From a virus (Duplodnaviria > Heunggongvirae > Uroviricota > Caudoviricetes), in the IMG/VR virus record IMGVR_UViG_2737471834_000007: a stretch of 36,329 nt of DNA; one strand, 5' to 3'. Shown in pieces: positions 28,787 to 31,699 of this stretch. How positions within the stretch are numbered: position 1 is the first letter of the stretch; each line of letters starts with the position of its first letter. A model generated the notes under the pieces. The model was not told where the DNA came from. It did not search any database and saw only the letters and a program-made list of their open reading frames with translations. The translations under genes and the position numbers were made by a program.

Positions 28787-29196
28787 TCCCCGGCAGTTGC
28801 CCGTTGAAACGCGGCACGGTACAGCACAAGAAGGCGCCGGTATTCGTCAATAAAGCCTTCTGCCGTTTTAATTCCTTTCACTGCCACGCTGTGGGTTGTC
28901 ATGTCCAGTACGAGCGCCATTTCTGACGATGACCAGCTGATAACGCTGCTGTCGAGTCCGTTGATGTGGAACAGGCCCAGATTCAGGCTGTGATTCAGGT
29001 CTCTGACGTCAACACGGTAACGGTCATCAACGGTGAAGGAGAAATCACCGGATGTGGCGGCGCTGCTGGCTGCCTGTTTACAGGCGAGGCGGTAATAGTC
29101 GTGCAGATCATTGAGACGGGAAGCGAGGCGTGGATCCACCGCCCACATCCAGTTAAAAAAATCCTGAATATCTGAAAGTCCCTTAACGTTCTTCAT
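28783..29196 (-). CDS. Hypothetical early protein (137 aa)
   Basis: CGGAGG SD; ATGA overlap with the replication gene start. Confidence 0.5.
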   Translation of the reverse strand: MKNVKGLSDIQDFFNWMWAVDPRLASRLNDLHDYYRLACKQAASSAATSGDFSFTVDDRYRVDVRDLNHSLNLGLFHINGLDSSVISWSSSEMALVLDMTTHSVAVKGIKTAEGFIDEYRRLLVLYRAAFQRATAGE

Positions 29197-29264
29197 GTGA
29201 ACCTCCGGTAACAGACGTGCGGAAGCCTCCCGCGCACGGGTGCGGGATGGCTTCAGGATATTGA

Positions 29265-29492
29265 TTAGTGGTGGTATTGCTGGCTGATGAGGTCCTGCAG
29301 CTCCGCGAGATCATCCGCCAGGTAGCTGAAGACTGCCGCGTAATACCCGGCAGCGATACCGCCGTTAAGCCGATGTAATACGTTTGACTGCATGATGAAG
29401 GCGACAGATGCAGCCCGATGGAGTCTGCGGTTGATTTCGGTGCGGATGTGAAGGCGCTCAGCGCGGGCGCGCTGTTGTTTGCGGTTTGCCAT
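29265..29492 (-). CDS. Hypothetical small basic protein (75 aa)
   Basis: GAAGAGG SD upstream of the ATG; Arg-rich N-terminus. Confidence 0.45.
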   Translation of the reverse strand: MANRKQQRARAERLHIRTEINRRLHRAASVAFIMQSNVLHRLNGGIAAGYYAAVFSYLADDLAELQDLISQQYHH

Positions 29493-29780
29493 GGTATGGC
29501 CTCTTCGTTTGTAAGTTTGGGAAACTCACCATCCAGAGGTTCCAAGCTCGGGGTGGCGAGACGTACGGGGTTGGAACTACCGGAAAACGAAGAAACCGGC
29601 CCGACCAGAGTCGGCCCCGTACGCCCCGCCATAATTTGGGTGCGAAAACGGCGTGGCGATACGGTACGCACAAAAAAACCGCTGGCGCGGCTGTGCGCTT
29701 CGTTTGTCGGCGGGGTTCCAATCCCGGCACCCGTTTTATGAGGTGCAGCGGGAATGTAACCCGACAGATTGCGGCATGGC

Positions 29781-29840
29781 AAGCGGTTTTTTTGTGTGTG
29801 CATGATGATCACTCAGTCCGGTAACAGTTCACGGAGCACG
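29781..29840. repeat. Direct repeat copy A (~57-60 bp) at the 3' end of the methyltransferase gene
   Basis: About 85% identical to 30876-30932 by hand alignment (AAGCGGTTTTT..GTGTGTGCATG...ACTCAGTCCGGTA.CAGTTC). Confidence 0.6.
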
Positions 29841-30828
29841 GCGTCAGCTGTTGTTCTGTGGTGTAAGAGGTAAACATCGCGCTGTAAGTTGTATCTCCCG
29901 TCACCGTGCCGCAGTCCGGACAGTAGCCGCCGCCATGGCGACCACAGGCGGCGCACTGTCTCAGGGTGGCGATAACCTCCGGTGCTGGTTTTCGGGTTTT
30001 TGCGCCAACGCTTCGAGGTGCCTGGATGCGGTTCATCCGGTAGCCCTGATAAATGCGCCGGGTTTCCGGTGTGTCGGAGCCGGAAATGGTTATGCTGGTC
30101 ATTCCACCTGTTTCCTGTGAAAGACGGTCAAGCGCTGCTCTCAGGCGAACGTGTTCGTCCTTCGTGAAGGGGTTTTCGTAGGCGGTGAAATTGTCCCGGC
30201 CACTGAATGGCAGGTAAGGGGGATCGCAGTACACGCAAAGCGTACTACCTATGCTGAACAGGTGACTGGCAGTGTTCAGCGTTTTCTGAAAATCGCCATG
30301 AACAAGCAGTGTTCTGGTGCTGTTTGCCTTGTCTGCAAATGCGCGGATTTCCCGTTCAGGGAAGTAGGGAGCCCGGTAGCCACCGAATGGGACATTAAAA
30401 TCCCCTTTTTCATTCACCCGGTACAGGCCATTAAAGCAGTGCCTGTTGAGGTATAAAAACATGGCGGCCAGCCGTAATTCGCGACGGTCGCTTATTCCCG
30501 TGCTCAGGAATGCATGATTCTCTGCATTAAAGGTGTTACGGATAGCGAGATAGTCAGTCCTGTTGTTGTGCTCCAGGAACAGGCCTTTTGCTTCGTTGAT
30601 CAGACTGTCGGTGTTGTCCCGTGCTGCCCGACAGAAATTAATCAGCGCACCATTGGAATCACCCGGGATGTAGCGGCTGTAACTGGTGTTCATGAATACC
30701 GATGCGCCACCCACGAACGGCTCAACCAGGCAGTCAGCTTCTGGCAGGTGCGCCTTCAGTGTGTTCATGATGCGGCTTTTCCCGCCCACCCATTTCAGCG
30801 GTGTGCCGGATAACAGTTCTTTGCTCAT
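29809..30828 (-). CDS. Dam-family N6-adenine DNA methyltransferase (339 aa), orphan
   Basis: AdoMet-binding motif (EPFVGGASVF) N-terminal and catalytic DPPY C-terminal (alpha-class order); Cys-rich C-terminal tail; no restriction endonuclease partner seen. Confidence 0.8.
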   Translation of the reverse strand: MSKELLSGTPLKWVGGKSRIMNTLKAHLPEADCLVEPFVGGASVFMNTSYSRYIPGDSNGALINFCRAARDNTDSLINEAKGLFLEHNNRTDYLAIRNTFNAENHAFLSTGISDRRELRLAAMFLYLNRHCFNGLYRVNEKGDFNVPFGGYRAPYFPEREIRAFADKANSTRTLLVHGDFQKTLNTASHLFSIGSTLCVYCDPPYLPFSGRDNFTAYENPFTKDEHVRLRAALDRLSQETGGMTSITISGSDTPETRRIYQGYRMNRIQAPRSVGAKTRKPAPEVIATLRQCAACGRHGGGYCPDCGTVTGDTTYSAMFTSYTTEQQLTPCSVNCYRTE

Positions 30829-30896
30829 AACGCGGCCTCTTTGTTACAGGTTTCGTGTGCCAACAAATCCCATGAAAGCGGTTTTTGTGTGTGCAT
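30825..30896 (-). CDS. Candidate upstream leader ORF (23 codons) coupled to the methyltransferase start
   Basis: ATG at 30896; its TGA overlaps the methyltransferase ATG (ATGA); lies inside repeat copy B. Confidence 0.25.
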   Translation of the reverse strand: MHTQKPLSWDLLAHETCNKEAAL

Positions 30897-30932
30897 GGCG
30901 ATTACTCAGTCCGGTAGCAGTTCGTACAGCAC
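30876..30932. repeat. Direct repeat copy B, spanning the 3' end of the HTH gene and the methyltransferase leader
   Basis: See copy A. Confidence 0.6.
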
Positions 30933-31460
30933 AATGTCGTCGACAGTGCGGCGGCGACTGTAAAGAAAATATGCTGTGTTAGTGGTCGCTTTTATTTGCA
31001 GTGTGTGATTGATGTGTTTTGCTATCGCGGCGAATGTCATACACTGTTCATCACGTAGTTCTGTTACCAGTTCCACCAGGCGATCGCTGTATCTGGTCAG
31101 GTGGTGCAGATCTCCGCATTTCTGCAGTCTGTAACCACGTTTACTCAGGTGTTCCTGTACTGTGCGACGGGTACATCCCACCATGACTGCCATTTCCTGC
31201 GCTGTTCTGGTGTGACGGTTTCTGATGAGAAAATTGATTTCTTCTCTGCTCAGCGTTTTTCTCTTGCGACCAATTAATCCACGATCACGTAAAACACGAA
31301 TTCTGTGCATAACTGCGCTGCGGGTGCGTTGAATTCGTTCAGCCATCTGGTATGTGCTGTTTTCCTGATAAAGCGAGGTAAGCATCTCGTCTTCCTGCCG
31401 TGTCCATGGTTTCACGTGCGCAGGGGCTTTGCCTGGTATCCCCATTGGTTGAAGTATCAT
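30906..31460 (-). CDS. Putative DNA-binding protein with helix-turn-helix-like segments (184 aa)
   Basis: ACGGAGGT SD; basic segments of HTH character (STYQMAERIQRTRSAVMHRIRVL; RTAQEMAVMVGCTRRTVQEHL). Confidence 0.5.
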   Translation of the reverse strand: MILQPMGIPGKAPAHVKPWTRQEDEMLTSLYQENSTYQMAERIQRTRSAVMHRIRVLRDRGLIGRKRKTLSREEINFLIRNRHTRTAQEMAVMVGCTRRTVQEHLSKRGYRLQKCGDLHHLTRYSDRLVELVTELRDEQCMTFAAIAKHINHTLQIKATTNTAYFLYSRRRTVDDIVLYELLPD

Positions 31461-31486
31461 CGTGATAACCTCCGTGCCTGTGCCGG

Positions 31487-31699
31487 TTATTCGGTCGGGT
31501 TCAGGGTGTAATCAATGGCGTTTTCAATACGGCGTTTAAGCTCGCGGTGGATCTCACCCGGTGTTACTGGTGCGCCAGGACCGCTCAGCGTTGCCGTGAA
31601 GTCGTCGATTTCCTCCATCAGCAGATTGCGGAGTACAGCGATGTGGTGGCGTACATCTTTTCCTGGTTTGCGTGCGTTGGTGGTGTACTTGCTGATCAT
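31487..31699 (-). CDS. Hypothetical small protein (70 aa from MISKY)
   Basis: ATG at 31699 overlaps the upstream stop (ATGA). Confidence 0.4.
   Translation of the reverse strand: MISKYTTNARKPGKDVRHHIAVLRNLLMEEIDDFTATLSGPGAPVTPGEIHRELKRRIENAIDYTLNPTE

Follow-up and report, generated by a model that had tools for sequence, protein, structure and literature searches.

Results

Gene order at the locus

The window, by which we mean the whole stretch of DNA analysed (36,329 nucleotides; IMG/VR record IMGVR_UViG_2737471834_000007), is a P88-like (Xuanwuvirus, P2 family) Escherichia prophage that adjoins chpS-chpB/ppa in the Escherichia chromosome GCA_000798075.1. All genes of the locus described here lie on the minus strand. 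Read along that strand, early genes and an HTH gene are followed by repeat copy B, a Dam methylase, repeat copy A, isrK, C4, a 75-aa derepression-family protein, a 137-aa protein and replication gene A (845 aa, Phage_GPA); the neighbours of the methylase are thus the HTH gene and RNA genes (Table 1). The 3′ end of the HTH gene makes up most of repeat copy B, and homologues of this gene are annotated in the Citrobacter phage Shae_phiSM and in a prophage of E. coli N51.

Table 1. Features of the methylase locus, in minus-strand order. Positions are those of the window.
Feature	Positions	Strand	Content or basis
HTH (SANT/Myb-like) DNA-binding gene, 184 aa	30906..31460	-	ORF; weak HTH Pfam matches; PHROG 323 transcriptional regulator
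Repeat copy B	30876..30964 (core 30876-30932)	-	final ~20 codons of the complete HTH gene, then ATGCACACACAAAAACCGCTT
23-codon chimeric ORF	30825..30896	-	ATG and first codons from the repeat; last 16 codons, SWDLLAHETCNKEAAL, from a ParE-like gene
Dam-family N6-adenine DNA methyltransferase, 339 aa	29809..30828	-	PF02086, TIGR00571 and 2g1p matches
Repeat copy A	29781..29869 (core 29781-29839)	-	stub of a second, N51-like HTH allele plus upstream edge of the isrK promoter
Predicted isrK promoter, TTGCCA-18-TACATT	29753..29782	-	only sigma-70-like match in 29200-31600
isrK-type leader RNA (RF01394), with intrinsic terminator and a1/b1 target boxes	29672..29746	-	68.1 bits against a gathering score of 50
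isrK terminator, 3′ half and U-run	29666..29686	-	complementary to 29779-29799 in copy A and 30877-30891 in copy B
C4 antisense RNA (RF01695)	29549..29636	-	83.2 bits against a gathering score of 45
Derepression-family protein, 75 aa	29265..29492	-	PF25738, 28.6 bits; C4 b2 target (29510-29502) over the Shine-Dalgarno region

A Dam-family methylase with a foreign tail

The methylase belongs to the D12-class Dam family: its profile matches exceed the curated cut-offs (PF02086, 173 bits against 22; TIGR00571 dam, 228 bits against 114.85), it matches the E. coli Dam structure 2g1p (E=1e-51), and both the AdoMet-binding FxGxG motif (EPFVGGASVF) and the catalytic DPPY motif (VYCDPPYLP) are present. 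Its score with the equivalog model NF008152, 217.7 bits, lies under that model's cut-off of 441. The fold and the two motifs are shared with E. coli Dam (2g1p; TIGR00571), to which the protein is ~45% identical. In contrast to the E. coli enzyme, it has an additional C-terminal CxxC...CxxC segment, which is native to this subfamily of phage methylases, and a 19-residue tail acquired from the junction described below. Native methylase sequence extends from 30828 to ~29866, and the remaining 19 codons (29865-29809) come from an HTH stub translated in a different frame. Native relatives have 324 residues and end in ...YSAMFTSAHP.

The residues that align with K9, N120, L122, R124, N126, N132, P134 and Y138 of E. 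coli Dam are conserved, while a glycine stands in place of R137. We take these positions, most of which are thus retained, to be the GATC contacts of the literature on the E. coli Dam-DNA structure. Judged from its sequence, the phage methylase probably methylates GATC.

The first-pass annotation had described the gene as an orphan Dam-type methyltransferase, and the profile and structure matches agree with the Dam assignment. As with other orphan phage methyltransferases of the Dam family, there is no restriction partner in the prophage: among the genes called over L006, from the integrase to the portal/terminase genes, a precomputed Pfam list contained no restriction-enzyme domain and no restriction-modification nuclease. 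The methylase is predicted to be expressed within the early operon and would be an accessory gene of the orphan, anti-restriction or epigenetic kind.

Two copies of one boundary flank the methylase

A repeat search found a pair of direct repeats at 29789-29839 and 30882-30932 (51 nt, 84% identity, 1093-nt spacing) and no other repeat of comparable quality anywhere in the 36-kb window. Gapped local alignment pairs 29781-29830 with 30876-30923, with one 2-nt indel in the A-run, and scores 69; shuffled sequences (n=2000) gave a mean of 17.2, a standard deviation of 2.3 and a maximum of 32. For a 19-nt core pattern, the window has two occurrences where 0.02 would be expected. We therefore rejected a chance match, whose probability is vanishingly small: the score is far beyond the shuffle maximum, and dozens of relatives have a single site to which the two copies are both homologous.

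The earlier description of ~57-bp, ~85% identical direct repeats around the methyltransferase was accurate in placement and has been refined in extent. The cores, 84-88% identical, bracket the methylase, and comparison with single-copy relatives extends the duplicated unit to ~89 nt. Over these 89 nt copy A and copy B are 71% identical, against 84-88% over the 3′ ~57 nt. Each copy consists of the last ~20 codons of an HTH gene and ~25 nt upstream of the isrK promoter -35; these ~25 promoter-proximal nt form the conserved margin of the isrK promoter on its upstream side. Copy B ends within the position of the isrK -35 hexamer.

The open reading frames bore out the way in which the two copies had been said to close two different genes. 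Copy B ends the HTH gene (...VLYELLPD, stop at 30906-30908), and copy A ends the methylase in a different frame (...PCSVNCYRTE, stop at 29809-29811). The stop in the HTH frame of copy A lies at 29813-29815, which gives the reported 4-nt offset.

Translated in the HTH frame, copy A reads ...LLHHRTTADAVLRELLPD; its counterpart in the N51 prophage reads ...HLYHRRTATDAVLCELLPD. Compared with the single copy of N51 across the 89 nt, copy A has 88.8% identity and copy B 76%. These values, taken with the lower identity of the copies to one another, show that the copies come from two lineages carrying different HTH alleles. Duplication in situ was rejected as their source, as two alleles this different are present.

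Relatives with one copy and with two

Prophages with an undivided site had been named as the test of a recombination joint, and they were found. We took relatives of the HTH gene from IMG/VR: 20 of the 23 loci with an HTH homologue have a single copy, with the HTH gene directly before isrK. A second IMG/VR sample, of 80 loci retrieved through the derepression protein, contained 22 with the same single-copy arrangement. The two samples overlap; across them the empty site occurs in 42 relatives, and it occurs also in Shae_phiSM and in the N51 prophage (L005), in each of which isrK directly follows the HTH gene.

The N51 prophage shows how the site is divided in the window. Window positions 29200-29869 correspond to L005 3001-3670 (87%) and 30876-31500 to L005 3582-4208 (74%), and both window copies map to the same 89 nt of N51, L005 3582-3670. 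Across many upstream contexts the conserved isrK block invariably starts at about ATGCACACACAAAAAAACCGCTTGCC, ~-60 of the promoter. Together, this block start and the comparisons with N51 and the other single-copy relatives define the repeat unit as an HTH 3′ end together with the upstream margin of the isrK promoter.

The doubled arrangement was found in only three genomes, the window included. The other two, IMG/VR 2737471860 (L007) and JACXXQ010000004 (L035), have identical junctions, which indicates a single origin. L007 is ~99% identical to the window from the HTH gene through the methylase and ~87% from the joint onward; L035 is 96.3% identical in an overall comparison. In both, copy A is 96% identical to copy B of the window, and in L007 the two copies are identical to each other over 46 nt. 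The converted copy A in these genomes and the divergence of L007 past the joint show that the copies and the downstream module keep recombining.

Other relatives carry a methylase in different arrangements. The order Dam, DUF4406, HTH, isrK occurs in L080, L083-L086 and L088, with a Dam allele only 45% identical to that of the window, and L028 has the order Dam, DUF4406, HTH without isrK. L003 has a shorter HTH stub downstream of its own Dam block, fused to another ORF. This stub is independent of that in the window, which shows that such deletions recur. Neither the doubled arrangement nor a close copy of this HTH allele was present in complete E. coli genomes or phage records, and scans of a one-genome-per-species collection with the HTH protein and the HTH alignment found no relatives.

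The inserted block and its joints

Between the repeats, 29866-30875 is 89-91% identical to the ParE-like/Dam block of the E. coli P88-like prophages L003 and L004. There the Dam methylase, of 324 aa, comes after a ParE-like gene, and the small genes ahead of isrK are different ones. Homology to both stops exactly at the repeat edges, that to L004 extending up to 30875. The ~1-kb block consists of the last 16 codons of the ParE-like gene and the methylase gene without its last 3 codons, and truncated gene remnants lie at both joints, the ParE-like remnant at one and the HTH stub at the other.

The upstream joint reads CCGCTT followed directly by TCATGGGATTT; to the left is boundary sequence cut at the -35 position, to the right the 3′ end of the ParE-like gene. 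Comparison of the parental sequences showed essentially no microhomology here. At the downstream joint (GATGTTTACCTCTT) the HTH stub replaces the native end of the methylase (...GATGTTTACCTCTGCTCACCCGTGA, ...FTSAHP) after ACCTCT, and the parental sequences, GTTTACCTCT and GTTTCATCTCT, agree at 9 of 11 positions. The methylase lacks its own last three codons; its frame continues instead into the HTH stub, out of register with the HTH gene, and this adds 19 codons.

The short ORF before the methylase had been read as a leader. It does have 23 codons (30896..30825) and does overlap the methylase ATG through ATGA, as first described, but it is a chimera in which an ATG from the repeat is joined to the ParE-like remnant. 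Its ending, SWDLLAHETCNKEAAL, matches that of the L004 ParE-like protein, SWDLLTHETYNREAAL, and we therefore regard the ORF as a chance fusion; a designed leader peptide was rejected on the same ground. The remnant retains the ATGA overlap and a GAGG Shine-Dalgarno sequence for the methylase.

An isrK/C4 module next to the repeat

Directly downstream of copy A lies an isrK/C4 module that the first-pass annotation did not mention. Both covariance models score above their gathering scores and complementary boxes lie on either side of C4, identifying the module as a C4/isrK antisense immunity module. The -35 hexamer of the predicted isrK promoter abuts the end of copy A, and the promoter lies ~7 nt upstream of the Rfam 5′ end of isrK. 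The C4 loops are complementary to boxes in isrK (29721-29715 and 29705-29698) and to boxes in the leader of the derepression gene (29545-29539 and 29510-29502), the second of which covers the ribosome site. The target boxes show three-way covariation across 107 loci.

IsrK has been described as a structural homologue of the P4 seqA RNA, and the RNA downstream of it (STnc1160) has been likened to P4 CI (PMC4825925). The module here shares the a1/b1, a'/b', a2/b2 layout of the P1/P7 c4, P4 CI and Gifsy-1 isrK modules, with the second target over the ribosome site of the next gene. Unlike them, it lies inside a P2-like early operon, just upstream of gene A, and the next gene encodes the 75-aa derepression-family protein rather than orf45/AnrP or icd/ant. 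Among the papers searched, there was no report of isrK/C4 in P88-like phages.

We also considered the repeats as targets of the C4 RNA. This was rejected, as the complementarity spans only 7-8 nt and the methylase gene contains other matches just as good.

Discussion

Origin of the repeats

Mosaic joints in temperate phages are formed by illegitimate recombination, according to the Hendrix-Hatfull model of phage mosaicism. The joints described here have the features of such events: there are sharp shifts in similarity at or within the ends of genes, truncated remnants are left behind, relatives carry alternative modules, and one joint has a short microhomology. Unrearranged relatives, a donor-type block that ends at the joints and truncated remnants were all found. 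The repeats are very probably the scar of illegitimate recombination between P88-like (P2-family) prophages. They differ from most described mosaic joints, which have one copy of the boundary, in that both parental copies have been kept, leaving the acquired gene flanked by repeats.

The suggestion that the methyltransferase was inserted or exchanged as a module through a recombination joint is in keeping with this. The single-copy relatives, together with the presence of the same block in a different context in other P88-like prophages, indicate that the methylase indeed arrived by modular insertion or exchange. Elsewhere among E. coli P88-like prophages, the ParE-like/Dam block is part of the accessory early region. 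In HTH-bearing relatives the usual order is HTH gene, isrK promoter, isrK, C4, derepression gene and gene A, and here the ~1-kb block of ParE-like remnant and methylase has been joined between the HTH gene and the isrK promoter, which accounts for the presence of the 89-nt boundary on both sides. The downstream junction, at the short shared patch, fuses the methylase out of frame to the HTH stub. As the upstream junction cuts its copy of the isrK promoter at the -35, only copy A is predicted to keep a working promoter.

An accessory gene flanked by direct repeats might also be a mobile cassette, whether a transposon, an integron-like or other site-specific element or one driven by a homing endonuclease, with the repeats as target-site duplications or attachment sites. 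We consider this very unlikely. The segment encodes only the methylase and a 16-codon remnant, contains no recombinase, transposase or homing endonuclease gene, has no terminal inverted repeats at its ends and is bounded on both sides by truncated genes. An 89-nt duplication with 71-88% identity is unlike a target-site duplication, the same Dam block occurs without these repeats and in other contexts in other prophages, and only a single origin of the junctions was found.

For the course of events we somewhat favour two steps, a deletion followed by an unequal crossover. A phage with ParE-like, Dam and other genes, then an N51-like HTH gene and isrK, may first have lost sequence by a deletion, leaving Dam joined to the HTH 3′ end. 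Unequal crossover with a phage carrying the other HTH allele beside isrK could then have placed that HTH gene and a copy of the boundary upstream. The expected intermediate, with the ParE-like gene, the Dam-stub fusion and isrK and without the upstream HTH gene, did not turn up in 5,426 complete E. coli genomes, in IMG/VR or in a metagenome scan, and the order of the steps is thus inferred rather than observed. Two further points count against our reading: the Dam allele of the relatives with the order Dam, DUF4406, HTH, isrK is distant from that of the window (45% identity), and the upstream joint has essentially no microhomology.

The main alternative to this two-step route is a single insertion, possible though the less probable of the two, in which copy-choice replication or template switching copies the block into an HTH-isrK phage and re-enters the template 89 nt upstream, the copy A and isrK side being replaced later. 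The two copies would initially have been identical, until exchange with other P88-like phages by homologous recombination or gene conversion. One event would then account for both junctions and for the exact 89-nt duplication. The near-identity of L007 to the window from the HTH gene through the methylase, and the drop to ~87% past the junction, show that the stub and isrK side is readily exchanged, and conversion between copies is seen in both L007 and L035. Against a single insertion, the 71% identity of the copies and the closeness of copy A to N51 require further replacements, and the relatives in which Dam lies upstream of HTH-isrK, along with the L003 stub, make a route through deletion at least as simple.

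Could the duplication have a regulatory role?

The two-step and single-insertion routes need no function for the repeats, which can nonetheless support gene conversion and loss of the cassette. We considered whether the duplication has instead been kept for regulation, with the element CACACAAAAA(AA)CCGCUU serving as a partner of the isrK terminator (an antiterminator) or as an antisense target like P4 seqA/seqC. The terminator, in its 3′ half and U-run, has complementarity to each copy, over 21 nt in copy A (90%) and 15 nt in copy B (93%). When RNA including copy A was folded, pairing between the element and the terminator was predicted (-60.9 kcal/mol, z = -4.3), even with the RNA truncated at the terminator stem; when the RNA began at the isrK promoter start, the terminator hairpin was predicted instead. 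Element and terminator are essentially invariant across ~100 P88-like loci, with few length or point variants, and four lambdoid isrK loci lack the element.

Against this, one copy suffices in nearly all relatives. A covariation test of the element against the isrK terminator in the ~100 loci gave no support: the few variants, among them A5 elements with U7 terminators and a CCGC-to-CCAC change, are uncompensated. The A-run of the element lies at ~-40 to -50 of the isrK promoter, where UP-element function would explain its conservation equally well. For an antisense target, the complementarity of C4 to the repeat, at 7-8 nt, is no better than at other sites. A duplication retained for regulation therefore seems improbable.

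A narrower proposal is that the promoter-proximal part of the repeat, CACACAAAAAAACCGCUUGC, acts beyond its role as promoter edge as a promoter-selective antiterminator. We consider this unlikely. If it were true, in RNA from the upstream early operon the element would pair with the terminator at its 3′ half and U-run, and such transcripts would read on to gene A, while transcripts from the isrK promoter, which lack the element, would terminate. Insertion of the methylase would in that case have doubled the element.

Accessory-gene gain in a temperate phage

The arrangement is ordinary phage mosaicism around an ordinary phage Dam methylase, and involves no new mechanism. It is a clear case of accessory-gene gain by a temperate phage: both joints are mapped to within a few bases, relatives supply a block of the donor type and the empty site, and there is evidence that the flanking copies later underwent conversion. 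It also illustrates how, at such joints, a protein can acquire a chimeric tail and a spurious small ORF can arise, either of which could be mistaken for a designed feature. The biologically richer feature adjoins the repeats: the isrK/C4 antisense switch upstream of the P88-like replication gene.

The isrK/C4 antisense-RNA module

The copy of the flanking direct repeat at the distal end of the Dam methylase gene (copy A) adjoins an isrK/C4 antisense-RNA module, which lies between the early genes on one side and replication gene A on the other. The module was not among the features named in the first-pass annotation. In the window, the C4 loops match four boxes: two lie within isrK and the other two 5' of the gene for a 75-aa protein of the derepression family. 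The second of the two boxes preceding that gene covers its ribosome site.

Features of the isrK/C4 region and the adjoining repeats
Feature	Position	Strand	Remarks
isrK-type leader RNA and C4 antisense RNA	29549-29746	-	directly downstream of copy A
C4 target boxes ahead of the derepression gene	29537-29547, 29498-29512	-	match C4 loops
21-nt element	29779-29799		just 5' of the isrK -35; 90% complementary to the 3' half of the isrK terminator and its U-run (29666-29686)
Counterpart of this element in copy B	30877-30891
209-codon ORF	29183-29812	-	in a different reading frame; passes through copy A, isrK, C4 and the derepression gene

We compared the boxes in 107 loci of P88-like prophages (L001-L115) aligned to window positions 29485-29746. 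Across these loci the three 'a' boxes (a1, a' and a2) covary, as do the three 'b' boxes. At least six 'a' types (for example TTGGAAC, TTTCCAC, TTCGCAG, TTCTCAA, TTGCAAC and TTGAGAC) and a dozen 'b' types occur in 36 combinations. Such variety has the look of a large repertoire in which box types are combined to give different antisense-RNA immunity specificities.

Among about 100 P88-like loci the 21-nt element is almost unchanged, and it is missing from all four lambdoid isrK loci compared. RNA folding predicts that it disrupts the isrK terminator solely in transcripts arriving from upstream. The element could be an antiterminator, or it could simply be an UP element.

The 209-codon ORF that crosses this region is probably spurious; its start, ATGCACACA, is kept across many upstream contexts.

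The repeats, Dam alleles and other features

The doubled arrangement occurs in two other genomes, L007/L034 and L035. Their equivalents of copy A are 96% identical to copy B of the window, the repeat on the other side of the Dam gene, and within L007 itself copies A and B match at every position over 46 nt. These identities indicate gene conversion between the flanking repeats.

Six P88-like phages from IMG/VR (L080, L083-L086 and L088) have the order Dam, DUF4406, HTH gene directly before isrK. Their Dam allele differs from that of the window (45% identical). L028 has the same Dam-DUF4406-HTH order with a ParE-like gene in front, and no isrK/C4.

GATC occurs 98 times in the whole window, where base composition predicts about 140, a mild depletion in a phage with a Dam-type enzyme of its own. 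At the left end, positions 1-610 are 84-93% identical to regions of E. coli whose annotation gives a Hok/Gef family protein adjoining a RuvC family or hypothetical protein.

Possible implications for replication control

In P88-type loci, including L040, L041 and L046, a hairpin rich in G and C, with a run of T after it (CCGGCCAGTGAAAACCGCTGGCCGG...TTTTTT), lies just 5' of the isrK promoter, about 30-75 nt upstream of the promoter element. If this hairpin terminates early transcription, gene A would rely on both the C4 switch and the promoter of isrK, a dependence that would then be like that of P4, whose replication operon depends on the CI RNA.
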